DNA of 64,000 nt from an uncultured Bacillales bacterium (GCA_946611235.1 CAMODE010000041.1:8316-72315), one strand, 5' to 3'; counted from the stretch's first letter, positions 24,819 through 43,783 are shown. The notes: generated by a model from the letters alone, not told the origin. Made by a program: numbers and translations.

Positions 24819-26108
24819 ATGAAAAATAATAAATTTGTAAAATCAACTCTTATTTTAATAATTGGTGGATTTATTACTAAAATACTTGGTATGATCATAA
24901 AAATAGCCTTAACTAGAAGTATTGGTACCGATGGAATAAGTTTATATATGTTAGTACTTCCTACTTTTAATTTATTTATAACATTATGTAATTTAGGAGT
25001 ACCAGTAGCTATAACTAAATTAGTATCTGAAAAGAAAAAAAGTAGTAAAAAAATAATCATACCTACTACTTATTTAATACTTGTTTATAATTTATTTTTA
25101 ATCTTAATAATAATTATTATATCACCATATTTAGCAAATAACTTACTACATAATTCAAATACCTACTACCCATTAATAGCTATAGGTGCTACCCTTCCTT
25201 TTATAGCTATATCATCTATTATAAAGGGATACTTTTTTGGTAAAGAAAATGTTTTTCCTTGTACTCTATCAAATATTACTGAACAAATAGTACGATTACT
25301 TTTAACTATAATACTCGTATCGCATATGATAAAGTATTCATTAGTAGTAGTAGTAACAACTGTCGTATTAATAAATATAATAAGTGAAGGTTCTTCTATT
25401 ATAATATTATTACTCTTTTTACCAAAAGAAAAAATAAAAAAGGAAGACCTAAAAAAAGATAATATCTTACTAAAAGAAATACTAGGTATTAGTCTTCCCA
25501 CTACTGGATCAAGATTAATTGGCTCTATTACCTATTTCTTAGAGCCAATACTACTTACAAATATATTAAAATATACTGGTTATACAGCAGACTATATAAC
25601 TCTAGAGTATGGTATTATTAACGGATATGTTTATCCCTTATTACTCCTTCCTTCTTTTTTTACCCTAGCTATTTCATCAGCAATACTTCCAGTAATATCA
25701 AATAGTTATAGTAATAATAATATACCTTATGCAAAAAAGAAATTAAAACAAGCAATTATCTTTTCACTACTTATTGGTATTCCATGTACGATATTATTTA
25801 TACTAGTTCCAAACAAGTTATTAAACTTGGTATATAATACTAATCTAGGTGTTAACTATATAAGAATAACTGCCCCTTTTTTTCTCCTCCACTATATTCA
25901 AGCACCACTTACAAGTACTTTAACAGGTATGGGACTATCTAAGGAAGCAATGAAAGGAACTTTATATGGAGGAATAATAAAAATCCTATCTCTAATATTA
26001 TTTAGTTTATTAAAGATAGGACTATATAGTCTAATTATTTCTTCAATTCTCAATATAATGGTAGTAACAATGCATCATATCTATCATGTTAAGAAAAAAT
26101 TATTTTAA
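24819..26108 (+). CDS. MOP-superfamily flippase, SpoVB-like (polysaccharide biosynthesis protein family)
   Basis: N-terminus KSTLILIIGGFITKILGMIIKIALTRSIGTDGISLYMLVLP is typical of SpoVB/MurJ-like proteins. About 12 TM segments. Confidence 0.75.
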   Translation: MKNNKFVKSTLILIIGGFITKILGMIIKIALTRSIGTDGISLYMLVLPTFNLFITLCNLGVPVAITKLVSEKKKSSKKIIIPTTYLILVYNLFLILIIIIISPYLANNLLHNSNTYYPLIAIGATLPFIAISSIIKGYFFGKENVFPCTLSNITEQIVRLLLTIILVSHMIKYSLVVVVTTVVLINIISEGSSIIILLLFLPKEKIKKEDLKKDNILLKEILGISLPTTGSRLIGSITYFLEPILLTNILKYTGYTADYITLEYGIINGYVYPLLLLPSFFTLAISSAILPVISNSYSNNNIPYAKKKLKQAIIFSLLIGIPCTILFILVPNKLLNLVYNTNLGVNYIRITAPFFLLHYIQAPLTSTLTGMGLSKEAMKGTLYGGIIKILSLILFSLLKIGLYSLIISSILNIMVVTMHHIYHVKKKLF

Positions 26109-26486
26109 ATCATCACTACCAAAAGGATATGGACATAAATCTCTCACTGCATATATTTCACGATCATAATCATTACTATATAAGATAATTTCATCATCTG
26201 GAGAAAAAAATTCACTTATCACTTGTCTGCATAGAAAACATGAAGTTGATATTCTAGGGCTATCACACATTACATATAGCTTACTAAAATCACCTTTTTT
26301 ATATCCACTTGCAACAGCATTATTAATTGCCACTCTCTCAGCACATATCGTAGCGCCGAAGGAAGCATTCTCAACATTAACTCCTCCGAAGCTTTTACCA
26401 TCTTTCATTAATACAATCGAAGCAACCTTAAAACCAGAATAAGGACTATAACTATTTTTTAATAATCTTTTTAAACTTTCTTCCAT
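26100..26486 (-). CDS. cdd: Cytidine deaminase
   Basis: CAERVAI zinc motif and a second CFLCRQVISEF motif. 128 aa, homotetrameric type. Confidence 0.88.
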   Translation of the reverse strand: MEESLKRLLKNSYSPYSGFKVASIVLMKDGKSFGGVNVENASFGATICAERVAINNAVASGYKKGDFSKLYVMCDSPRISTSCFLCRQVISEFFSPDDEIILYSNDYDREIYAVRDLCPYPFGSDDLK

Positions 26487-26499
26487 TTTACCCTCCTGT

Positions 26500-26940
26500 T
26501 TATCTTACTATATTGTACTCTTGTAATAATTCTTCTTGAAGAGAAAACATTTCTTTTTCTTCTTTTTCAGTCATATGATCATATCCTAGTAAATGAAGTA
26601 TTCCATGAGTAGCTAAAAAACATACTTCCCTTTCTCTCGAATGATTATACTCAATTGCTTGATCATATGCCACATTAATAGCTATATAAATATCTCCTAG
26701 TAACCTAAAATCTTCATAAACAATATCTTTATTATCTTCTAAAGCAAATGATATAACATCAGTTACTCTATCAGTATTCCTATATTCTCTATTAATATTA
26801 TGAATTTCTTCATTACTTACAAATATAATATTAAATATTGCATTTTCAATATTTAATTTTTTTATAACAAACTTTAAATACTCATCTAATTTATTAATTT
26901 CCACTATTTCTTTATCGGTATTATTAATTATATCAAACAT
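26500..26940 (-). CDS. ybeY: rRNA maturation RNase YbeY
   Basis: HGILHLLGYDH metal-binding motif. Confidence 0.92.
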   Translation of the reverse strand: MFDIINNTDKEIVEINKLDEYLKFVIKKLNIENAIFNIIFVSNEEIHNINREYRNTDRVTDVISFALEDNKDIVYEDFRLLGDIYIAINVAYDQAIEYNHSREREVCFLATHGILHLLGYDHMTEKEEKEMFSLQEELLQEYNIVR

Positions 26941-26944
26941 CTTA

Positions 26945-27562
26945 TTACCCCCATATCATACCAAATATATTTATATTAAATGAATACATTATAACTAGTA
27001 ATAAAATTAAAATTACTAATATATCAATTACTGTATCATTTTTTAATATTCTAACTTTACTCCTAATGGCATCTATGCCAATAAATAATAATCCTCCAAT
27101 TATTCCACCTAAGACATTAAGAATAATATCATCAATATCAAATACTCTACCTATATGATATTGAACTACTTCTATCGTTATAGAAACAATTAAACATAAT
27201 ATAAAAGTCACACTTATTTTTCTATTTTTTAGCAAATAAGAAGATAAAAAGCCATATGGAATGAATAACATTATATTTCCCAAAATATTTTTAATAAATT
27301 TTTTAGATCCAATACTATATCTAAATATCTCTTTAAAGGGTACATAATTAGATATACCGTAATTAGAATCTTGAAATGTCACTACATAAAACAAACATAA
27401 TATATATGTTATGGCAATTAAATATATTAATTCCTTATGCAATAAGAATTTCTTATGTTTAGTTATTAAATATGCTATTCTAAGACTAGATACTATAACT
27501 AGTATAATAACAATCATTGGCCAAATATTAGGAAGTGATTCCATAAAAACATCTTTTATCAT
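26945..27562 (-). CDS. VanZ family membrane protein
   Basis: Contains VFDIDDIILNVLGGIIGGLLF. AAAGGAGG RBS before ATG at 27562 (the ORF track extends to 27583). Confidence 0.75.
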   Translation of the reverse strand: MIKDVFMESLPNIWPMIVIILVIVSSLRIAYLITKHKKFLLHKELIYLIAITYILCLFYVVTFQDSNYGISNYVPFKEIFRYSIGSKKFIKNILGNIMLFIPYGFLSSYLLKNRKISVTFILCLIVSITIEVVQYHIGRVFDIDDIILNVLGGIIGGLLFIGIDAIRSKVRILKNDTVIDILVILILLLVIMYSFNINIFGMIWG

Positions 27563-27619
27563 ATATCCTCCTTTTATTCTCATAATAAAGGTACCAAGGC
27601 AGAAACCTTGATACTACAA

Positions 27620-28051
27620 TTAATCTAAATCATATTTATCTAATTCATCTGCTAATTCAAGTTGGGCTTTAATTATATTTTTAATTCTATTTTTATAAAC
27701 AATAATATTTTTTCTAAGTAGTGATGCCTCATTTTCGGTCTTTTGAGCATTAACTAAAGCTTCATGAACAATCGAATTAGCATTATTTCTAGCTTCATCC
27801 ACAATAACTCTAGCTTCCTCTCTTGCCAAAGATTTAATCTTTTCGGAAGTACTTTGTGCAGCCATAATAGCCTCAGCCATTTTAGCCTCATTTATTTTTT
27901 CCTTCTTTAATTCTTCTTCAAGCGAAGAGATTTTCATCTGTAATAAAGAATTCTCATTATTTAATTTTTCTAATCTTTTAATTACAACATCAATAAACCT
28001 ATTTACTTCATCAACATTATAACCATTATTAGTTATCGTAAATCTCTTCAT
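27620..28051 (-). CDS. DivIVA domain-containing protein
   Basis: N-terminus FTITNNGYNVDEVNRFIDVVIKRLEKL followed by a coiled-coil. Confidence 0.8.
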   Translation of the reverse strand: MKRFTITNNGYNVDEVNRFIDVVIKRLEKLNNENSLLQMKISSLEEELKKEKINEAKMAEAIMAAQSTSEKIKSLAREEARVIVDEARNNANSIVHEALVNAQKTENEASLLRKNIIVYKNRIKNIIKAQLELADELDKYDLD

Positions 28052-28071
28052 AAGTCACCACTCTTATCTTT

Positions 28072-28461
28072 TTACCATTCTAAATCAATATCATTTTTCT
28101 TTTTGTTTTTTTCATCTTCTTCGGAAATTGTACCTTCTACATTAACATTTTTAGGAGTGCATAAAAATATGCCTCCTCCTATTTTTTGAAGATCTCCTCC
28201 TATTGCATATACTGTACCAGATAGAAAGTCAACAATTCTTTTAGCTTGATCAGGAGTTACCCTTTTCATATTAACTACAACAGTATTTCTTTTTTTTAGA
28301 TGATCTGCTATCTGCTGACTCTCAGAATAAGCACGGGGTTCTAATAAAATCATCTTACCATTACCTATTCCAGCTACTTTCTCAGCATCATAGTATTCAT
28401 CTTCATTAGCTTCATCCATTACTTCTTCTGTTACAAATTTTTTAAGTTTACTAAGTGCCAT
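28072..28461 (-). CDS. sepF: Cell division protein SepF
   Basis: Core region [30 protein letters not shown]...[15 protein letters not shown]. Confidence 0.88.
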
Positions 28462-28523
28462 ATATATCTCTCCTATTCTTCTTTAATTTTAGCATAATTT
28501 TTATTTAAATACAATAGTTTTTC

Positions 28524-28922
28524 TTAACTTTTACAGTCTACAATATTTTCATTTTCATAATTATAACTAAATTCTTTAGTAGAACAATTATATGTTACTT
28601 CAAGTTCTGGAAATCTACTATCGATATTCTTATCAGATAAATTACCAAACTGTCTTAATATCTCTAATGATATTTCACTTTCATCAATTTTAACTACCGG
28701 AAAACCACTTACGTTACTATTACAATCAATATTTAGATTATATTTATTTTCTGCTACAAACATTTTAGCAGTACTAAGAATACTATCTTTAGTACTGAGA
28801 CATGATTTTTCTTTATTTTTATTTATTATTGTAATCACACTTGGTATTAAGGTAAGTAAAAGTACCCCAATTATTGCTATAACTAAAAGTGCTTCAACTA
28901 ATGTAAATCCTTTTTTACTCAT
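28524..28922 (-). CDS. Type IV pilin / pseudopilin (prepilin-type N-terminal cleavage/methylation domain)
   Basis: MSKKG/FTLVEALLVIAIIGVLLL has the class III signal with Glu5. Confidence 0.85.
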   Translation of the reverse strand: MSKKGFTLVEALLVIAIIGVLLLTLIPSVITIINKNKEKSCLSTKDSILSTAKMFVAENKYNLNIDCNSNVSGFPVVKIDESEISLEILRQFGNLSDKNIDSRFPELEVTYNCSTKEFSYNYENENIVDCKS

Positions 28923-28934
28923 TTATTCACCCTC

Positions 28935-29375
28935 TTAATCGAAATAAACATCACAAATAGAATCTGTAATAATATTTTCAAAAATTAAATCAACATTTCC
29001 CGAATGATTTTGATAATAATTCCCTCTTCCAGTATCAACTTCTATTGAAGGATTACAAGACATATGATTAAAATCTCTATTAATAGAAGATAACGTTATT
29101 TTTTCTGAATTACTTCCATCTAAAACATCAATACTTGATTCATTAACAAATGTCCCATCTTCATATTTTCGAATAATAACTGTATGCATATTCAAGGTAT
29201 CAGAAGAAAAATTCTTTTTTTCAAAATACTCATCTTCAATATCTTTAACCATATTATCTACTCTATTCTTTCTTGCAGATAAAACAAGTAAATAGGAACT
29301 AACAAGTACAACAAATAATATGAGGAGGCCATATAGTACAGCCGTTATAGCAAAACCTTTTTTATTTAGTTTCAT
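28935..29375 (-). CDS. Pilin-like protein lacking Glu5 (minor pseudopilin candidate)
   Basis: MKLNKKG/FAITAVLYGLLILFVVLV. Adjacent to and co-oriented with the pilin gene. Confidence 0.55.
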   Translation of the reverse strand: MKLNKKGFAITAVLYGLLILFVVLVSSYLLVLSARKNRVDNMVKDIEDEYFEKKNFSSDTLNMHTVIIRKYEDGTFVNESSIDVLDGSNSEKITLSSINRDFNHMSCNPSIEVDTGRGNYYQNHSGNVDLIFENIITDSICDVYFD

Positions 29376-31977: not shown

Positions 31978-34900
31978 TCAATTACACATTTCCCAATCGG
32001 AATTATTTTCACTCTTTTTATATTGACATTGTCCATTATAACATCTTCCTTGCTTATTACCAAAAACACATTGATTATCATTACTACATGCTCCACACTG
32101 ACCAACAGGTGAAGTACCTCCAGAACTAGAAGAGCAATTTGGTTTTGAAGAAACTAAATAGTCTCCACTTACATAACAGTTAGAACTAGCATTATAATAC
32201 CAATTTCCTGTATAAGACTTTACTAAGCCAGGCAAATAGGTTCCACATCCAAAATATGAAATAGTTGAATGACTGGTTGAAGGACCACTTCGACATTTTA
32301 TGCCACTAACAGCATTAACATAGCTTCCTACAGCAGTATTTGCGTAATATTTAAAATACTTTATATCATCAGCGCAATTACCAACATTATCACATATCGT
32401 GGCTTTATATTTTCGATATCCACCATTATCGACTAGATTATCAAAAACATAATTGTTTCCGCTAGAAACGCCACTCAAAGCATATCCGCCAGCAGTAGGA
32501 AATGCTTCATTTAAAGATTCAGAACTATGATTATTAAAAAAGTATCTACCAGTAGAATTTATTCCACTAAATTGATCTGAAGCAATCCATCTAAGTGTTG
32601 GTTTAAAAGTAAACCATTTCAAATCATCACTTGGAGCCGAACTATAATAAGTACTGCTAGCAACTGTATTTCCATTTAGCAATTGAAAACTAACGCTTGG
32701 AGGTACTTTATCTATTTTAAAGAACACTTCACTATCAGTACAATTTCCTACATTATCACATATATTAAATTTAACATAACGATATCCACTAGATGACATC
32801 TTAACACTAAATTTTCCATTTGAATCACCAGTTTTTGATGCTGTAGAATTAATATCGGTAGATAATGTGCTTAAACCCGTTTTATTATATGAAATATTAT
32901 CTTTTAAATTTATATTAATTCCACTTAAAGAGTCAATAGTATCCCATTCAAGATAAAGAGAATTATTAATCCACTTTAAATCATCTGATGAACTAAGTCC
33001 ATAGATATTACTATTTAAATTAACAATTTCACCATCCGATCCGTTTTTCCTAACATTAACAGTGAATGTTGGTTTGATAAAATCGAGCCTCAAAAACACA
33101 TTACTTTCCGCACAATTTCCAGCTTCATCACAAGTTTCAAACTTAACATGTCTATATCCACTTGAACTAACATCAATAGCAAATGGTTCTTTAATTTGAT
33201 CACCATTGTAAACAATTCGAGTTAATGGATTAGAATTTAAAGAATTTAAATTAATTTTATTGTAAGAAAAGGCCTGTTCTTTAATTCCACTTCCATTTTC
33301 CACCGAAGTCCATTCGAGTTTAGGGACATAATTAATCCATTTTGGTACCGAAGCTTGCATCAAACTATATTCATTGCTTGAAGGGGATACTACATTATTG
33401 TTATGCTTCATGCCAAATGAAATAGTAGGTTTTGTTTTATCTATTCTAATATATGTAGAACTTTCTTCCGAACAATTACCAGCATTATCACATGCTCTCA
33501 CATAAACTGGCTCATTTCTTTCCGCAGAAAAAGGAGTTGTTACAAAATCTTCAACAGAAGAATTAGCATATGTATGCCATGAATGGCCTTTGTAACGATA
33601 TTGATAATATGCAATTCCTGATAAATTATCTGCACTATGTAAAGTTAGGGAAAAACTATAATTAACCCACTCTTCATTAGAAGGATTATCAATAATTGGA
33701 GCACTAGGAGGAGTCGAATCTAATTTAGATATATATTGCGTTTCTCCACAATAAGTTGACCCAATTTTAGTTCTAGCAGTATAAGTATGTATTCCTTCAG
33801 CTGGAAAAATAGGATTACTATAAGTTTGATAGTCACCATCATCTATCTTATATTCATAACTTGGATTTCCAACATTTTCACTAGTTATTGTTAAAGTATG
33901 CCCACTATTATGCCATTTTTCAGAAGCAATTCCATCACTCGGAGTAATAATTGGTGATAAACAGCTACTACTTTCCCAATTAACAGAAAGCACCACAGTA
34001 CAATTATCCTCTTTAGCATTACAGAAAGAATCCGAATTATAATTATCTACCTGATTATATGTTTTACCAAGACATTCCCCAGAAATACATTTCCATACAC
34101 TTCCAGTAGAAACAGTAAACCCAGGATTAGTAATTTTCATATATTCCCCATTGTTATATTTAGGCAAATCTTTTTCTTCATTATATAAAATGCTAAAGAA
34201 ACTATCTGTATATGTGTTACCATTGTCTTTTGATCTAGAAATTATTCCATTACTAGAATTAATTTCCCATAAATACTTAGTTCCATCATCCGAAATTGTT
34301 GAACTTTTAATCGAAGCCCCTTCCCCAGCATTAAACTTAATAATAACCTTATATTTAGCCTTCCACATAGCATATAAAGTCACACTATCTGATGATGTTA
34401 AGTTATATACAGTATCTTTATTTTTATACGTTTTTCCAGATAAATCACTCTTAGTATTCCAACCTATAAACTTATAACCATCTTTACTAAATCCATTTTC
34501 ACTTAAAGTACAATTTTTACCTCTAACACATGTCGTACTAGGAGTGCTACCATCTACTCCATTTGTATTAGCATTATAATCAATTGTATAATTATCTACT
34601 TGCCACTGAGCATAAAGAGTAATTGTATCTTCACTATAAGAATTAATAGCGTCTCCTGCCAAATAATTCATACCACTCCCATCTGGTTCTGTATTCCAAG
34701 AAACAAAGCGATATCCTACTCTTTTAGGCTTCAAAGGGCTAACATATGTTACCATACAATTTTCTTCAGTACATATTTCAGCCATCTGATCAATTGGAAC
34801 ATTTTGATTATCACCATCTGAATTATATTCATAATGAATAGTAAAAAACTTAATATCACATAAATCTTTCAATTCAGTAGCATCATCTTCCAAAAAATCA

Positions 34901-35253
34901 ATACTATTAATTGTATATTTAGTTGCATCCCTAACAACAGTTATGATTAAAGAATCACCATATTTTTCACTAGTAGCTTCTTTTTTTAATAACCCAACAT
35001 TCTTAAGTCTTTGAATAGTAGTACAAAAATATTGACTATTATTAAGTTCTTTCCAATCATAACTATTAGCTTCACTAGAATATATTCTAGCAGCTTCCAT
35101 TATACTTGTTTCATTTAAAACAACCGTTTTTTCTTTGGCACTCTTATATGCATTAATAATACCATATCCAGATAATCCTAAAACTAAAGAAGTAACCACT
35201 ATTACTGCAAGTAATTCAACTAATGTAAAACCTTTCCTATTTAATTTCTTCAT
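31978..35253 (-). CDS. Giant modular type IV pilin-like surface protein (1091 aa)
   Basis: MKKLNRKG/FTLVELLAVIVV class III signal. Then 2 Listeria-Bacteroides (Flg_new) repeats (GYRFVSWNT...TLYAQW, GYKFIGWNT...TLYAMW) and 4-5 Ig-like modules ending CDxxGNC / IDKxxP. Ends with an SH3b-like segment and a 6-Cys tail. Confidence 0.85.
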   Translation of the reverse strand: MKKLNRKGFTLVELLAVIVVTSLVLGLSGYGIINAYKSAKEKTVVLNETSIMEAARIYSSEANSYDWKELNNSQYFCTTIQRLKNVGLLKKEATSEKYGDSLIITVVRDATKYTINSIDFLEDDATELKDLCDIKFFTIHYEYNSDGDNQNVPIDQMAEICTEENCMVTYVSPLKPKRVGYRFVSWNTEPDGSGMNYLAGDAINSYSEDTITLYAQWQVDNYTIDYNANTNGVDGSTPSTTCVRGKNCTLSENGFSKDGYKFIGWNTKSDLSGKTYKNKDTVYNLTSSDSVTLYAMWKAKYKVIIKFNAGEGASIKSSTISDDGTKYLWEINSSNGIISRSKDNGNTYTDSFFSILYNEEKDLPKYNNGEYMKITNPGFTVSTGSVWKCISGECLGKTYNQVDNYNSDSFCNAKEDNCTVVLSVNWESSSCLSPIITPSDGIASEKWHNSGHTLTITSENVGNPSYEYKIDDGDYQTYSNPIFPAEGIHTYTARTKIGSTYCGETQYISKLDSTPPSAPIIDNPSNEEWVNYSFSLTLHSADNLSGIAYYQYRYKGHSWHTYANSSVEDFVTTPFSAERNEPVYVRACDNAGNCSEESSTYIRIDKTKPTISFGMKHNNNVVSPSSNEYSLMQASVPKWINYVPKLEWTSVENGSGIKEQAFSYNKINLNSLNSNPLTRIVYNGDQIKEPFAIDVSSSGYRHVKFETCDEAGNCAESNVFLRLDFIKPTFTVNVRKNGSDGEIVNLNSNIYGLSSSDDLKWINNSLYLEWDTIDSLSGININLKDNISYNKTGLSTLSTDINSTASKTGDSNGKFSVKMSSSGYRYVKFNICDNVGNCTDSEVFFKIDKVPPSVSFQLLNGNTVASSTYYSSAPSDDLKWFTFKPTLRWIASDQFSGINSTGRYFFNNHSSESLNEAFPTAGGYALSGVSSGNNYVFDNLVDNGGYRKYKATICDNVGNCADDIKYFKYYANTAVGSYVNAVSGIKCRSGPSTSHSTISYFGCGTYLPGLVKSYTGNWYYNASSNCYVSGDYLVSSKPNCSSSSGGTSPVGQCGACSNDNQCVFGNKQGRCYNGQCQYKKSENNSDWEMCN

Positions 35254-35313: not shown

Positions 35314-37494
35314 TTATAACTTAATTGGATTAAAATCAAGTTCAACATTTATCTTATTATCTTTTTTATACATATCATCAATAAATCTAAGAGATTTAAG
35401 CAAATTATCATCTTTTCGATATTTAATAATAATTTGATAATGAAAAATATTATTAACTCTAAACATACTAGCCATCGATGGACCTAGTATTATTGTTTCA
35501 CTACTTAAATTATTATTTAAATAATTAGCAATCTTATTCGATTCTTTAAATCCTAAGTCATAATCTTTAGAAGAAATAGAAACCACTACCATATAATAAT
35601 ACGGACTATATTTAAGAAGTTTTCTCATTTTCATTTCTTCTTTATAAAACGATAAATAATCATGATTTTTCGATAAAGTAATACAATAATGATCAGGATT
35701 ATATGTCTGAATAATAACTTCTCCTTTTGATTCGCTTCTACCAGCTCTTCCTGATACTTGTGAAAGTAATTGAAAAGTATTTTCACTCGCTCTAAAATCC
35801 GGAGTACTTAAAGTACTATCTGCACTTACTACCCCAACTAAAGTAACATTTGGAAAATCAAGTCCTTTAGCAATCATCTGTGTTCCAATTAAAATATCAT
35901 ATTCATGATTCCCAAAAGCATCAATAATTCTTTCATGTTCTCCCTTCTTACTAGTAGTATCAATATCCATTCTAACTATTCTAGCCTTATATAATTTATT
36001 TAGTTCTTCTTCTAATTTTTCTGTTCCTAGTCCATAATCTTTAATATTCGTGCCACCACAATTACTACATTTTTCCACTAAAGGTTTAGAAGTACCACAG
36101 TAGTGACATTTCAAATTATTACTAGTCTTATGATAAGTATAAGAAATATCACATTTAGGGCACTTCTCCGTATGACCACAATCTTTACAAGTAATAATAT
36201 TAGAATACCCTCTTCGATTAAGTAATAATATTATTTGTTCTCCCTTATCTAACTTTTCTTTAATCTTATTTTTTAAAATACTAGATAAAATAAAATTTCC
36301 CTTCTTAATTTCTTCTTTCATATCTACTATTTGCACATCAGGAAGAGTACTACTACCAGGTCTTTTATTTAAAGTAAGCAAAGTATACACTTTATTACCA
36401 GCTCTTGCAAAAGATTCTAAACTAGGAGTAGCACTACCAAGTACTACTGGACATTTATGATAATTACTTCTCCAAATAGCAATATCCTTAGCATTATATC
36501 TCGGATGACTCTCTTGTTTATAAGAAGAAGTATGCTCTTCATCAATTATAATTACTCCAATATTATTAAAAGGTACAAAGATAGCACTACGAGTTCCAAT
36601 TACAATCTTTGATTTATCTTCTGTAATCTTTCGATATTCATCATATCTCTCACTATCCGATAATCTCGAATGAAGTACCGATATAACATCTCCAAATCTC
36701 GATATAAACTTACCTACTATCTGAGGAGTCAAACTAATCTCTGGTACTAACATAATAGCCTCTTTGCCATTTTTTATAGCCTCCTCTATAACACTCATAT
36801 ATACTTCTGTTTTACCACTACCTGTTACTCCATATAAGAGAAAGGTTTCACTCTTACCAAAAGAAGATATAATTCTATTTCTAACATTTTCTTGTTCACC
36901 AGTTAAAATAACCCTTTTATAATTAGATAGTCCCATATAATTGTACCTTTTTTCTTCTATCTCTACTACTACTCCAAGTCCATGTTTAATAATCGTATTA
37001 ATCGTACTAGACATCTTACTAATTAATATATCTCCTTCTTTTAACTTACAAAGTAAATTAATCTGTCCCTCATACTTACAATTCTTAATATAATTATCAA
37101 TCTCTTCAATACTTTTATTTCTTCTTAAATACTTATTATATTTAATCTTAATATCAGTACCAGCTTTAGCCTTTAAAGCTTTAGGAAGCATTACCTGATA
37201 AGCACTAACTTTAGAACACAGCAAATTATCACTCATATATTTACCAAGTTCTAACATTTCTTTATTAATAACAGGTTCATTATCAATAACAGAAGTTATA
37301 TCTTTAATCTTATCTTTATCATAATTAGTATTATTCTTAATATTAATAACAAACCCCTCTAAACTCATCTTGCCAAAAGGAATACTAACTCTTATACCTA
37401 TTTTAATATTACCTTCTAATTCTTTAGGAACTCTATACTCAAATACATTATCTACTGCTTTAGCACCAATTTCACAAAGTACATCTATATACAT
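35314..37494 (-). CDS. priA: Primosomal protein N' (replication restart helicase PriA)
   Basis: GVTGSGKTEVY Walker A, DEEH box, a Cys4-Cys4 zinc region (CKDCGHTEKCPKCD...CHYCG...CSNCG), and GTQMIAKGLDFPNVTLVGV. Confidence 0.95.
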   Translation of the reverse strand: MYIDVLCEIGAKAVDNVFEYRVPKELEGNIKIGIRVSIPFGKMSLEGFVINIKNNTNYDKDKIKDITSVIDNEPVINKEMLELGKYMSDNLLCSKVSAYQVMLPKALKAKAGTDIKIKYNKYLRRNKSIEEIDNYIKNCKYEGQINLLCKLKEGDILISKMSSTINTIIKHGLGVVVEIEEKRYNYMGLSNYKRVILTGEQENVRNRIISSFGKSETFLLYGVTGSGKTEVYMSVIEEAIKNGKEAIMLVPEISLTPQIVGKFISRFGDVISVLHSRLSDSERYDEYRKITEDKSKIVIGTRSAIFVPFNNIGVIIIDEEHTSSYKQESHPRYNAKDIAIWRSNYHKCPVVLGSATPSLESFARAGNKVYTLLTLNKRPGSSTLPDVQIVDMKEEIKKGNFILSSILKNKIKEKLDKGEQIILLLNRRGYSNIITCKDCGHTEKCPKCDISYTYHKTSNNLKCHYCGTSKPLVEKCSNCGGTNIKDYGLGTEKLEEELNKLYKARIVRMDIDTTSKKGEHERIIDAFGNHEYDILIGTQMIAKGLDFPNVTLVGVVSADSTLSTPDFRASENTFQLLSQVSGRAGRSESKGEVIIQTYNPDHYCITLSKNHDYLSFYKEEMKMRKLLKYSPYYYMVVVSISSKDYDLGFKESNKIANYLNNNLSSETIILGPSMASMFRVNNIFHYQIIIKYRKDDNLLKSLRFIDDMYKKDNKINVELDFNPIKL

Positions 37495-37506
37495 ACAATC
37501 ACCACT

Positions 37507-37983
37507 TTATACTAAAATACTATTTTCTTCTTCCATTATCTCTTTAATTCTATCAATATCTGTAAAAAACAAATCTAAGCCATTTTCTTTTAGTGATAAC
37601 ATATATTTAAAATTATCAATTATTTCTTTTTCAACAGGAGTAGAAACTCTTATCTGTTTACCTTCAATCGTATGGATATTTTTTATATATTTTTTTAATG
37701 TAGGAAATGCATTCTGAATTAAAATAACTTCTTCAAGTCCTGAAATATTTCTTATTAATATGGTTCTGCAATTACCATATTTATTTATTTTATGTTTAAT
37801 AATTTTTTTATATTTATCTATTTTAGAACTAAGTGGTATAAACCATAAAATATCTCTATCATTAATAGCTAAATAAGAAGGTCTCGACTTACCGTTATCA
37901 TGATTAATCATAATACTTTTCTCATTTATTTTTTCAAAAAACTCATCTTTAATATGATATAAATAACCAGTTTTAACTTCCAT
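37507..37983 (-). CDS. Type III toxin-antitoxin system toxin, ToxN/AbiQ/CptN-like endoribonuclease
   Basis: Contains MEVKTGYLYHIKDEFFEKIN...GKSRPSYLAI...WFIPLSSKIDKYKK, resembling the ToxN/AbiQ family core. GGTGA RBS before ATG at 37983 (the ORF track extends to 38004). Preceded by an RNA repeat array and a terminator. Confidence 0.7.
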   Translation of the reverse strand: MEVKTGYLYHIKDEFFEKINEKSIMINHDNGKSRPSYLAINDRDILWFIPLSSKIDKYKKIIKHKINKYGNCRTILIRNISGLEEVILIQNAFPTLKKYIKNIHTIEGKQIRVSTPVEKEIIDNFKYMLSLKENGLDLFFTDIDRIKEIMEEENSILV

Positions 37984-38087
37984 TTTCTTATCACCAATCC
38001 TCATTTAATATTTATTATATATAATCGAAAGAATAAAGTCAAGAAATATTTTACCATTTATAAACAAATGTTTGCTATATTTTTGCA

Positions 38088-38119
38088 AAAAGAAAAAAGT
38101 TCTTATAAAATAAGAACTT
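38088..38119 (-). terminator. Rho-independent terminator between antitoxin repeats and toxin gene
   Basis: Minus strand reads AAGTTCTTA-TTTTA-TAAGAACTT (9-bp stem) followed by TTTTTCTTTTT. Confidence 0.8.
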
Positions 38120-38120
38120 T

Positions 38121-38237
38121 AAGGCATTTACAACCAGGATCATTTATTGCTCGCACCACCTGGAAGCGATTAACATTTCACGACCGGGATCATTTATTGC
38201 TCGCACCACCCGAAAGCGATTAACATTTAATGCCTTG
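38121..38237 (-). ncRNA. Type III antitoxin RNA repeat array (2 full 50-nt repeats + partial copies)
   Basis: 38131-38180 and 38181-38230 share an identical GGATCATTTATTGCTCGCACCACC core and GCGATTAACATTT. Locally GC-rich. Compensatory stem change between copies (CCAGG/CCTGG vs UCGGG/CCCGG). Confidence 0.75.
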
Positions 38238-38256
38238 TCTTAATAAAGACACCTAT

Positions 38257-38285
38257 AATATACACCATAATTTATTAAAAGTCAA
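38257..38285 (-). promoter_or_regulatory. Promoter driving antitoxin repeats and toxin
   Basis: Minus strand reads TTGACT - 17 nt - TATATT, about 20 nt upstream of the first repeat. Confidence 0.55.
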
Positions 38286-38287
38286 TA

Positions 38288-38644
38288 CTATATCCATTTA
38301 CTTACCACAATATTTCTAACCCTCTCATTCTCATAATTATCATCATATCTAATAATCTTTCTAATTAATTTATTCGTCTTTTTATAACTATTTAAATCAA
38401 TATCACGAATATTAATAATACTCTTTAATCCCTTCCTATAATTATAATCACTAACATACTTATACATACAACTATCAACTAACATAATCTTATCTTCATC
38501 CTTATAACTAAAAACATAATCTTTATAAAAATCAATTAATTCAAAAGATATAATATCATCATCTTCATAATTAATAATATCATCATAATACCTACAAATA
38601 CTAAGTACTTTCCTTACATTATCCATATCAATAGTATGTATCAT
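38288..38644 (-). CDS. Hypothetical 118-aa protein
   Basis: ORF only, Asp/Tyr/Ile-rich; no motif recognised. Confidence 0.45.
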   Translation of the reverse strand: MIHTIDMDNVRKVLSICRYYDDIINYEDDDIISFELIDFYKDYVFSYKDEDKIMLVDSCMYKYVSDYNYRKGLKSIINIRDIDLNSYKKTNKLIRKIIRYDDNYENERVRNIVVSKWI

Positions 38645-38719
38645 AATCTCTCCTTTATATTAATTAAATTATAAATAAAAGAAAAAAGTCTGTAAAGGCT
38701 TTCGACAAAACTAGATATA

Positions 38720-39672
38720 TTATTTAAATACTAATTCATTATTATTTAAAAGATTATCTATTATATTATTATATAATTCTTTATCATTAATCTCATTAAT
38801 TGAAGTAATCCTACTACCAGAATCTTTAGAAGAACTACCACAGTGAAATATCTTTTCACTTTTCATACCATAATCAAGTATTATATATCTATCATGTATA
38901 ATATTATTCGTTACTTTAAAAATAATATTAATATTTGGATAATCCTTAATAAAATCTTCATATTCTAATCTATGTAATTTATTATTTACATTATCACTAA
39001 AGATCGTTACTTTTATTTTACTATCTATATCTTTTAATAATACTAAAGTTTTTAAATTAATATAATCATCAATAATATAAATACTCTTCTTAGCCATACT
39101 ATATATTTCACTATAAATATTATCCGACTCTACTCTTCTTCCATTTAATATTAATATTTCTTTAAGCTTATTACTACTATTAAATTTATCATTAATTATT
39201 TTCATTTCTTTTCTTATTTCTTTTATATCCTTAGTATTCTCATTAGTTTGAAGAGATAATTTAAGAATATCATCATAGCTTACTAAATTATTATTATTCT
39301 CTATAATATAATCTTTCATTTTCTTAAATATTCTAATTAATGCCTTACTCTGTATAGTAGCCTTTTCACCTTTTAATACAGTCATTAACATATATATACC
39401 TTGCTCGGTAAAAACGTAAGGAAGTTTTCTTCTTCCCCCCAACTTGATGTGGATTTTTTGAACATCAAGTTTTTAAATTCTTCTTCAGTTAACTGAAACA
39501 TAAAATCACTATCAAATTTATTCATATTATTCTTTACTTGCTTGTTAAAATCTCTAGTCGCATATCCATATATTTCAGCAAGGTCGCTATCTATCATAAC
39601 CTCTTTACCACGTATAATATATATTTTATTCCTAATACTTTTCTCATCTATTAATGCTATATCATTTTTCAT
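38720..39672 (-). pseudogene. ORF6N (KilA-N-like) DNA-binding domain protein with PLD-like C-terminal domain, split by a -1 frameshift in a G6 tract
   Basis: ORF 39385-39672 ends ..KKSTSSWGEEENF. ORF 38720-39442 begins GGRRKLPYVFTEQG. The joined SSWGGRRKLPYVFTEQG is the conserved ORF6N core. Poly-C at 39435-39440 on the plus strand. Confidence 0.7.
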
Positions 39673-42430: not shown

Positions 42431-42462
42431 GATATCAAATCGATACCTTATTTTTTATTTAT
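42368..42462. repeat. Direct repeat copy 1 (rluA-family 3' end + terminator)
   Basis: About 90% identical to 43972-44064. Both encode ..THKLFTFTSIIPEEFNNIIK-stop. Confidence 0.9.
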
Positions 42463-43783
42463 TGTATTCTACACTTTTTACTACCCATTCACCCTTTTTA
42501 GTAGCACCAGTTCTTTCAATCAATCCCATATCTACAAGTATTTTAATATTTCTTTGTATTGTTCTAATATTAACATCTAATATTCTTGATAAAGCATTCT
42601 GTGTAATAGTTGGAGAATCAAGCATTAACCCTAAAATAGAATTTTGTATTTCTGTTAATTCATCTTTCTTAATATTTTCTTGCTTTCTCATTTTAAATTT
42701 ATTTTCATTAAATGGAAATGTAACTCTAATAAAGTTTGGAAAAAATTCAAACGATTTTTTATCGTAAGTTTGAAGAATTCTAATTATACCAGTACCCATT
42801 TGCTCAACCAAATCTAAATCATTAAAAACTTTCATTAGTTCTTTATTTTTAGGTAACGAATATCCTTCTAGAAATTCTTCTTTTGTAGTAGCAGGCTGAA
42901 TACCACCATTTGATGATATTACTAATCTATCAATAAACATTTCAAACTTAGGAGCATACTCATTAGACCAATCATTATGAACAATGGCATTAACCACTGC
43001 TTCTCTTACTGCTGCAAAATCATACATTTTTATTTCCTTTCTTTCAGGGTATTCAATTTTAGTAAATATCTTGTTTTCAATCTCTATCTTATTTAAAATA
43101 TTCTTTGTTGCTTTAACAATAGAGCAATTACCAAAATCTTCATTTTCAATTAATTGAGCAACATTTGTCCCTTCGTATTTACCAAATCTAATAGATATTG
43201 TATTATTATCAGCAAGCAAATAAGCATTATAGTTATATTTACCATCATCAGTATATAAGTCTAATTGCTTTAAAAAATTATTATTAATAATAAATCCTTT
43301 TTCTTCGTAATATATTTTTAATTGACTAAAAGTTAAATCTTGCTTAGGTGATACTATATTTCTTAACGAAGTTCTTGTTCTTTTATTAACTCTATTATTA
43401 ATCATATCATGAGGCATACTTTGTATTGAACTACCAACTCTAATGAAGCAACTATCAGGTGTCATTCCCATACCTTTAATATAGTACGGGTCATCACTAC
43501 CACGGGCAATAATCACTTTAATATATTTTTTATTGTTTTCCTCTAATATTACAACATCATATAGTCCTAATGTGGATGGCATAATATTATCTTTTATTCT
43601 ATCTTTAATAGTCCTTTGTAATAAATCAATATTACCATTCACACCAACAATGTCCCCGTTATCATTAACACCAATATAGATATTGCCTCCATTGGTATTC
43701 AAAAATGAAATAACTTCTTCTTCGAACTTATCCGTTAGTTTAACTTTAAATTCATTTCTTACATCTTCAATTGCATTTATCAT
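42455..43783 (-). CDS. AlbA_2 (Schlafen-like) domain protein with HATPase_c_4-like region and C-terminal wHTH
   Basis: N-terminal EEEVISFLNTNGGNIYIGVNDNGDIVGV (AlbA_2), central REAVVNAIVHNDW, and C-terminal ILDVNIRTIQRNIKILVDMGLIERTG. Confidence 0.8.
   Translation of the reverse strand: MINAIEDVRNEFKVKLTDKFEEEVISFLNTNGGNIYIGVNDNGDIVGVNGNIDLLQRTIKDRIKDNIMPSTLGLYDVVILEENNKKYIKVIIARGSDDPYYIKGMGMTPDSCFIRVGSSIQSMPHDMINNRVNKRTRTSLRNIVSPKQDLTFSQLKIYYEEKGFIINNNFLKQLDLYTDDGKYNYNAYLLADNNTISIRFGKYEGTNVAQLIENEDFGNCSIVKATKNILNKIEIENKIFTKIEYPERKEIKMYDFAAVREAVVNAIVHNDWSNEYAPKFEMFIDRLVISSNGGIQPATTKEEFLEGYSLPKNKELMKVFNDLDLVEQMGTGIIRILQTYDKKSFEFFPNFIRVTFPFNENKFKMRKQENIKKDELTEIQNSILGLMLDSPTITQNALSRILDVNIRTIQRNIKILVDMGLIERTGATKKGEWVVKSVEYNK

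Follow-up and report, generated by a model that had tools for sequence, protein, structure and literature searches.

A probable CptIN-family type III toxin-antitoxin module with two predicted pseudoknot antitoxin units in an uncultured gut Bacilli bacterium

Type III toxin-antitoxin (TA) families are defined by the sequence similarity of their toxins. The CptIN family was established by Blower et al. 2012 (PMC3401426), whose survey covered 33 cptIN loci with repeats of 40-48 nt, all of them on chromosomes, and the structure of Eubacterium rectale CptIN (PDB 4RMO) was described by Rao et al. 2015 (PMC4627078). Toxin-antitoxin activity was shown for the CptIN systems of E. rectale and R. torques (PMC3401426, PMC4627078). 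The ToxIN systems of Pectobacterium atrosepticum and Bacillus thuringiensis, and AbiQ-antiQ of Lactococcus, are built from a promoter, tandem repeats, a terminator and an endoRNase gene. In the Pectobacterium prototype, ToxI consists of 5.5 repeats of 36 nt; the mean for toxIN loci is 2.8 copies of 38 nt (31-62) (PMC3401426). TenpIN of Photorhabdus luminescens has about two non-identical repeats of 39-57 nt, with a mean of 50.9 (PMC3401426, PMC12283969). Abortive infection is established for ToxIN, AbiQ and TenpIN, but not for CptIN. The locus analysed here lies at positions 37507-38285 of a 64,000-nt stretch of DNA from an uncultured Bacillales bacterium (GCA_946611235.1, CAMODE010000041.1:8316-72315; hereafter the window). 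Judged by sequence comparison, it is very probably a CptIN-family type III TA module, carried by a small mobile chromosomal cassette of an uncultured gut Bacilli bacterium.

The protein encoded downstream of the repeats matched the curated equivalog model NCBIfam NF047359 ('type III toxin-antitoxin system CptIN family toxin') over profile positions 1-150 of 150, scoring 149.6 bits where the cutoff is 90 (E 5.7e-44). The only solved structure that its sequence matched was CptN of E. rectale (4RMO, E 5.6e-19), which was also the sole match when a profile of the clade was searched against all PDB chains (E 2.3e-22). BLASTP identity between the window toxin and 4RMO was 35%, at the lower end of the 35-44% range found among the three experimentally validated CptNs (PMC4627078). 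An earlier note on this DNA had proposed a type III TA locus with a ToxN/AbiQ-like toxin, perhaps of a distinct subfamily, and had remarked in passing that the copy number was CptIN-like. Toxin homology, conservation of the array beside homologues and RNA covariation bear out the type III assignment, and the passing remark pointed to the right family. The ToxN/AbiQ label was rejected after the Pfam (including PF13958) and PADLOC scans gave no useful match. The idea of a distinct subfamily fared no better, given the NF047359 score far above the cutoff and a 50-nt unit that is only 2 nt beyond the 2012 cptIN range, which is descriptive and not defining (PMC3401426). The locus is best assigned to the already described CptIN family, and neither to a ToxN/AbiQ system nor to a new family.

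A ToxIN/AbiQ-family system, consisting of a ToxN_toxin (PF13958) protein and a ToxI-like pseudoknot in a triangular 3:3 complex, would have the same locus layout, and the fold and the active-site logic are common to CptN and ToxN (PMC4627078). According to the literature, ToxIN and AbiQ also share with CptIN the processing of the antitoxin by its own toxin and the antitoxin pseudoknot. However, similarity to their toxins was undetectable in sequence. The Pfam scan of the toxin (E<=1) returned no PF13958 and nothing meaningful, with a single spurious LRR match. No ToxN, AbiQ or TenpN chain was found in the PDB at E<=10 with the clade profile, nor any ToxN or AbiQ chain at the same threshold with the single sequence. 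Taken with the NCBIfam assignment to CptIN, the Pfam and PDB outcomes already refute this alternative at the level of sequence family. The two copies of 50 nt also contrast with the array of ToxI (PMC3401426), and the ToxIN complex is a heterohexamer, unlike the CptIN heterotetramer (PMC4627078). We regard a ToxIN/AbiQ-type system as very improbable. TenpIN resembles the window locus in its repeat length, copy number and non-identical repeats, but its toxin belongs to another family, and the NCBIfam and PDB matches were to CptIN only.

The protein search yielded 2295 relatives of the toxin, and a scan of species-representative genomes (one genome per species) found at least 385 stretches encoding such proteins, 80 of which were fetched for locus analysis. 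Nearly all come from metagenome-assembled genomes of gut 'Bacilli' or 'Tenericutes', the closest (97%) being that of Bacillales bacterium UBA3620. The methionine encoded by ATG 37983 (Met8) is invariant among homologues, most of which start there, and a Shine-Dalgarno sequence precedes this codon only and not the start at 38004; the product is therefore taken as 158 aa. Of the two lengths offered in the earlier note, 158 and 165 aa, only the first was retained.

When nhmmer was run iteratively from the two units of the window, a repeat was detected upstream of the toxin gene in 79 of the 80 loci, the lone exception having no upstream DNA; the conservation beside homologues that the earlier note had set as a test was thus observed. 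Exactly two units were present in 85 of 97 arrays, with a period of 49-51, and nearly all of them have AAAUG(UU) after the last unit. Unit positions 1-7 are conserved at 90% or more. In the window, Tandem Repeats Finder (TRF) reported 38125-38229 with a period of 50, 2.1 copies and 89% matches, and the repeat search gave two 50-nt copies of 90% identity, in agreement with the two 50-bp direct repeats noticed earlier, whose coordinates were correct to within 2-3 nt. Partial copies had been claimed at both ends: the one at the 3' end is real (AAAUG, the start of a truncated third copy), and the place of the one at the 5' end is taken by a leader with a small hairpin. The array is also the local peak in GC content, as the note had observed (0.37-0.44 at 38100-38249, falling to about 0.2 on either side). 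Some genomes (homologous loci L020, L023, L028-L033, L046, L054, L058 and L059) hold more than one cptIN module, or additional arrays, within a few hundred bases of one another. L058 and L059 carry four-unit arrays of a 49-nt variant, in which the unit starts alternate between AAAUG and CAAUG.

Comparing the sequence with the published 45-nt E. rectale CptI led to a pseudoknot model, which was tested on 123 distinct units aligned with MAFFT, with no fitting to structure. It is of the H type, with a 4-bp helix S1 (positions 10-13 with 25-28) and a 5-bp helix S2 (16-20 with 41-45). Standard pairs occupy 96.7% of the cells, compared with 83.8±0.5% after column shuffling, and they fall to 27-53% when the partners are slid by 1-3 columns. 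Cells in which both partners changed number 202, against 67±14 in shuffles (0 of 500 shuffles reached 202). Changes on both sides affect all five S2 pairs and two S1 pairs; for example, pair 20:41 is A-U in 63 units and G-C in 58, pair 17:44 is C-G in 76 and U-A in 44, and pair 10:28 of S1 is U-A in 85 and C-G in 37, with one exception. RNAalifold, which cannot predict pseudoknots, independently recovered S2. Natural variants of E. rectale CptI also carry compensatory changes at the inferred pairs. The data thus support an H-type pseudoknot in each unit, not a single hairpin. The 5-bp stem described earlier corresponds to S2 and was correct as far as it went, the other half of the fold, S1, having been overlooked. 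A fifth S1 pair (9:29) was rejected, since 97 of the 123 units are unpaired there. The minimum free energy fold of the precursor, with mispairing between units (z -2.6; a method that excludes pseudoknots), was also rejected for lack of covariation support.

Among the unpaired nucleotides, the 5' tail AAAUGUU, the junction UGG, the loop adenines and G48 are near-invariant, and in the E. rectale structure such positions make protein contacts or A-minor interactions (PMC4627078). The A-rich loop reads AAUAAAU, and the loop motif AUAAAUG is common to E. rectale CptI. Cleavage presumably falls within the stretch bounded by G48, which is invariant, and the AAAUG motif; the latter is taken as the site by comparison with GA^AAG in E. 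rectale CptI (PMC4627078). An Rfam scan of 36500-39500 at E<=10 gave no relevant family and two chance matches only, consistent with the expectation that the RNA half of the locus would escape annotation. The covariation-supported consensus pseudoknot, previously lacking for CptI, could serve as the basis for an Rfam-type model, which would let the RNA half of such loci be annotated automatically.

Direct repeats next to a promoter can bind proteins, and the repeats could be supposed to act as DNA (as an operator, iterons or recombination sites) or to be a decaying remnant, with the adjacent ORF under protein control. However, the compensatory substitutions preserve two crossing helices, and the G·U pairs are confined to the sense of the toxin strand, where alone they are sensible. 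The array is also flanked by a conserved promoter and a conserved terminator, it is clearly homologous to a crystallised antitoxin RNA, and the ORF is intact with its core residues conserved. A role at the DNA level is scarcely credible next to that of an antitoxin RNA precursor.

The window locus shares with E. rectale CptIN a homologous toxin, two tandem units that precede the toxin gene on its own strand and, after these, a truncated copy and an intrinsic terminator. Both antitoxins show an H-type pseudoknot with S1 of 4-5 bp and S2 of 5 bp, AUAAAUG in an A-rich loop directly before the 3' strand of S2, a single-stranded A-rich 5' tail and a 3' tail containing G, and both loci are chromosomal in a gut Firmicute host. 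The unit is 45 nt in E. rectale and 50 nt here, the extra length lying in a longer 5' tail, in the junction (UGGU here, AU there) and in the L2 loop. E. rectale-type loci, obtained by searching metagenomes for exact copies of the published CptI, differ in layout as well. Their array promoter abuts unit 1, whereas here it lies about 30 nt upstream with a leader hairpin in between. Their array-to-ATG spacer of 48-64 nt is filled by the terminator and the ribosome-binding site, which abut each other, and it holds no promoter-like element; such an element is present in the clade of the window, where the mode of the spacer is 74 nt, and the window itself has a spacer of 145 nt (Table 1).

Table 1. 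Features of the cptIN locus; positions are counted from the first nucleotide of the window.
Feature	Position	Strand	Evidence or remark
Array promoter TTGACT-17-TATATT; -35 38285-38280, -10 TATATT 38262-38257, 17-nt spacer	38257..38285	-	10/12 consensus match
Leader hairpin UGUCUU-UAUU-AAGACA, 6 bp, between predicted transcription start and unit 1	38236..38251	-	Fold prediction
CptI antitoxin unit 1, 50 nt, AAAUGUUAAUCGCUUUCGGGUGGUGCGAGCAAUAAAUGAUCCCGGUCGUG	38179..38228	-	nhmmer E 6.9e-17; TRF, repeat search
Unit 1 helices	S1 38219-38216 with 38204-38201; S2 38213-38209 with 38188-38184	-	Pseudoknot covariation
CptI antitoxin unit 2, 50 nt, AAAUGUUAAUCGCUUCCAGGUGGUGCGAGCAAUAAAUGAUCCUGGUUGUA	38129..38178	-	nhmmer, TRF, repeat search
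Unit 2 helices	S1 38169-38166 with 38154-38151; S2 38163-38159 with 38138-38134	-	
AAAUG boundary motif after unit 2, start of truncated third copy	38125..38129	-	Presumed 3' processing site of unit 2
Intrinsic terminator, 11-bp perfect stem 38120-38110 with 38106-38096, loop UUU, then UUUCUUUUU	38087..38120	-	
Extended -10-like site TGGTAAAAU	38056-38048	-	
Toxin-proximal promoter-like site TTGACT (38042-38037)-17-TATAAT (38019-38014)	38014..38042	-	11/12 match
Ribosome-binding site GGUGA, 7 nt before ATG 37983	37991..37995	-	Direct reading
cptN toxin gene, 158 aa; ORF open up to 38004	37507..37983	-	NCBIfam NF047359, PDB 4RMO

In this AT-rich DNA, promoter matches are no commoner than in shuffled sequence (15 against 13.4±3.7). 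Among homologous upstream regions, TTGACw-17-TATATT was present in 80 of 83 distinct sequences, against 27.9±4.6 when shuffled, and the match proposed earlier can thus be taken as the array promoter of the family despite its insignificance in the window alone. In most homologues the -10 element ends 25-35 nt before unit 1, and the promoter is identical in L001, the one homologous locus that shares the genomic context of the window. At the site of the leader hairpin many relatives have, by eye, a different inverted repeat (UGCAU/AUGCA, against GUCUU/AAGAC in the window). In loci where unit 1 starts with ACAUG, an AAAUG was seen about 10 nt upstream, in the leader.

Of the 84 arrays with a downstream toxin gene, nearly all have a hairpin and U-run after the truncated third copy, the stems differing in sequence. 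The built-in terminator scan, which requires at least three G-C pairs, found nothing in the window, as the AT-rich stem has only two; repeat search and folding did show the hairpin, with an 11-bp stem where 9 bp had been reported before. A plus-strand ORF of 51 aa (38068-38223) spans the terminator and the repeat array; it was dismissed as most likely a spurious by-product of the repeats.

Between the terminator and the ribosome-binding site, TGnTAnWWT occurs in 51 of 75 distinct spacers, compared with 11.1±3.0 in shuffles. The element often reads TRTGnTATAAT, while the window and L001 instead have TTGACT-17-TATAAT. Its recurrence suggests that the toxin gene has a dedicated promoter downstream of the terminator.

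Several points weigh against the assignment to a functional CptIN module or against parts of it. PADLOC-DB v2 gave no model for the toxin at E<=1. Alignment to 4RMO places Ser51-Ser52-Arg53 of E. rectale at Ser59-Ser60-Lys61, so that the arginine of the Ser-Ser-Arg triad is replaced by a lysine that is invariant in the clade; Tyr104, which stacks on the scissile adenine (PMC4627078), corresponds to His111, also invariant. Asp81, which sits in a one-residue insertion missing here, and Ser85, aligned to Val93, have no equivalents. As the residues around the scissile adenine differ, the enzyme may cleave with another specificity, and the precise site of processing may change with it. An AlphaFold2 model built from 22 close homologues was too poor to be used (pLDDT 45.7). 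The promoter-like site beyond the terminator may be at odds with the ToxIN model of one promoter and a leaky terminator (PMC3401426, Fig. 1A); the order of promoter, array, terminator and endoRNase gene expected from that model was found, and its single promoter may not hold here. Finally, abortive infection was not seen when the CptIN systems of E. rectale and R. torques were assayed in E. coli against six coliphages (PMC3401426).

The active-site segment PLSS(K/R)IDKYKK is conserved in homologues, and on alignment the catalytic core is recognisable with changes in the residues that read the scissile base. The window toxin is plausibly still catalytic despite the substitutions at Lys61 and His111.

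The proposed mechanism follows by analogy from the crystal structure and genetics of E. rectale CptIN. Transcription from the sigma-A-type promoter (38285-38257) would produce the leader, two 50-nt CptI units and the truncated third copy, and stop at the terminator. Each unit would fold with U10-C13 paired to G25-A28 in S1 and 16-20 paired to 41-45 in S2, leaving 5' and 3' tails single-stranded. CptN (37983-37507), a predicted ToxN-fold endoribonuclease, would cut the precursor between its units, in the conserved G-N-N-A-A-A-U-G linker, and the released pseudoknots would stay bound to it in a closed protein-RNA ring with the active site blocked. If the supply of antitoxin fell, free CptN would cleave cellular RNA and cause growth arrest. 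Processing, inhibition and toxicity in the window module, as well as a role in phage defence or in locus stabilisation, are inferred from this analogy.

The two units of the window differ at five positions, three of them within S2, which reads UCGGG/CCCGG in unit 1 and CCAGG/CCUGG in unit 2. Thus A18-U43 in unit 2 corresponds to G18-C43 in unit 1, the compensatory change already spotted in the earlier note, and C16-G45 to U16·G45. Unit 2 is effectively 49 nt long and is followed by AAAUGUU. The units have unlike S2 helices in 56 of 57 distinct two-unit arrays, and at least one S2 pair has changed on both sides in 55. At variable loop positions the units of one array agree (mismatch 0.02-0.30; about 0.5 between arrays), while S2 is as different within arrays as between random ones (0.44 and 0.38, respectively). 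Pair 17:44 is specific to the unit, differing within 86-88% of arrays. In E. rectale-type loci the two units are identical in no more than 8 of 40 distinct arrays, and many arrays show compensatory differences in S1 and S2. Compensatory differences from unit to unit are therefore not unique to the clade of the window, and the description of cptI repeats as 'nearly identical' (PMC12283969) is too simple.

It is conceivable, but on balance doubtful, that this clade has rewired the type III paradigm through an independent sigma-A promoter for the toxin and two non-equivalent antitoxin units. If the toxin promoter is real, toxin and antitoxin would be transcribed separately, and their ratio would not be set by read-through of the terminator. 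If the non-identity of S2 is functional, it could prevent mispairing between neighbouring units, and it could also place two antitoxin RNAs that are not equivalent within the same 2:2 complex. The putative promoter next to the toxin gene, the unit-specific S2 and the His/Lys substitutions provide leads on how the toxin:antitoxin ratio and cleavage specificity evolve. The general picture of type III systems is unchanged by this locus, which contributes a well-supported example and a large clade of uncultured gut Bacilli to CptIN, the one of the three classical type III TA families that has been studied least.

The cassette is flanked by housekeeping genes. Downstream of cptN, the start of priA lies 13 nt past the stop codon (37494-37507) on the same strand, with no terminator between them, so that the toxin gene and this essential primosome helicase gene may be co-transcribed. 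The cptN-priA arrangement is common to the window and L001 only. The intergenic regions of these two loci are 98% identical, and their neighbouring PriA proteins only 91%, a sign of constraint on the intergenic sequence. The upstream genes encode a SirA-like protein, a UPF0154 protein, a pseudouridine synthase and a phosphoketolase. Within the islet, the neighbours are a 118-aa ORF and an ORF6N-domain gene (38720-39672, minus strand) with a PADLOC match to PDC-S05, a candidate defence family (E 1.9e-67). A frameshift in a tract of six G (39440-39435) splits the latter into overlapping ORFs of 95 and 240 aa, which could reflect a pseudogene, a sequencing error or a phase-variable tract. In L001 the N-terminal part of the PDC-S05 protein is 100% identical, and only 72 C-terminal residues align. 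Since 79 of the loci lie in other contexts and only L001 is alike, the module moves as a cassette.

Phage defence by abortive infection, the role suggested in the earlier note, is established for the ToxIN, AbiQ and TenpIN systems; E. coli assays of two CptIN loci did not show it (PMC3401426, PMC4627078), which makes a defence role of the window module a conjecture. A functional CptIN could act instead in addiction or stabilisation of the islet or of mobile DNA, or in growth arrest under stress. The E. rectale locus stabilises a plasmid and aborts no coliphage (PMC4627078; PMC3401426 Table 3), and the genomic context differs in 79 of 80 loci. In addition, distant relatives of CptN (28-38% identity) are encoded as hypothetical proteins on six plasmids, including NZ_CP048628.1, NC_019558.1, NZ_CP075965.1 and three more, in contrast to the chromosomal loci of the 2012 survey (PMC3401426), and no relative of the toxin was found among GenBank phages. 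One IMG/VR contig (L081) carries the full module; its neighbouring genes have no PHROG matches, and it is thus no evidence of carriage by a phage. On the other side, the module adjoins the candidate defence gene PDC-S05/ORF6N, although this is frameshifted, the other two type III families abort phage infection, and the negative CptIN tests used a heterologous host and six coliphages only. An addiction, stabilisation or stress-arrest role is a serious possibility, at somewhat less than even odds.

Two other observations were made in the window outside the islet. A few kb from it, a 442-aa protein (42455-43783, minus strand) combines Schlafen AlbA_2, HATPase_c_4 and winged-helix domains. A 1091-aa protein whose N-terminus resembles that of type IV pilins (KGFTLVELLAVIVV) and which has a Listeria-Bacteroides repeat domain is encoded at 31978-35253 and at 26100-29375, both on the minus strand, and is followed by a series of small ORFs on the same strand.

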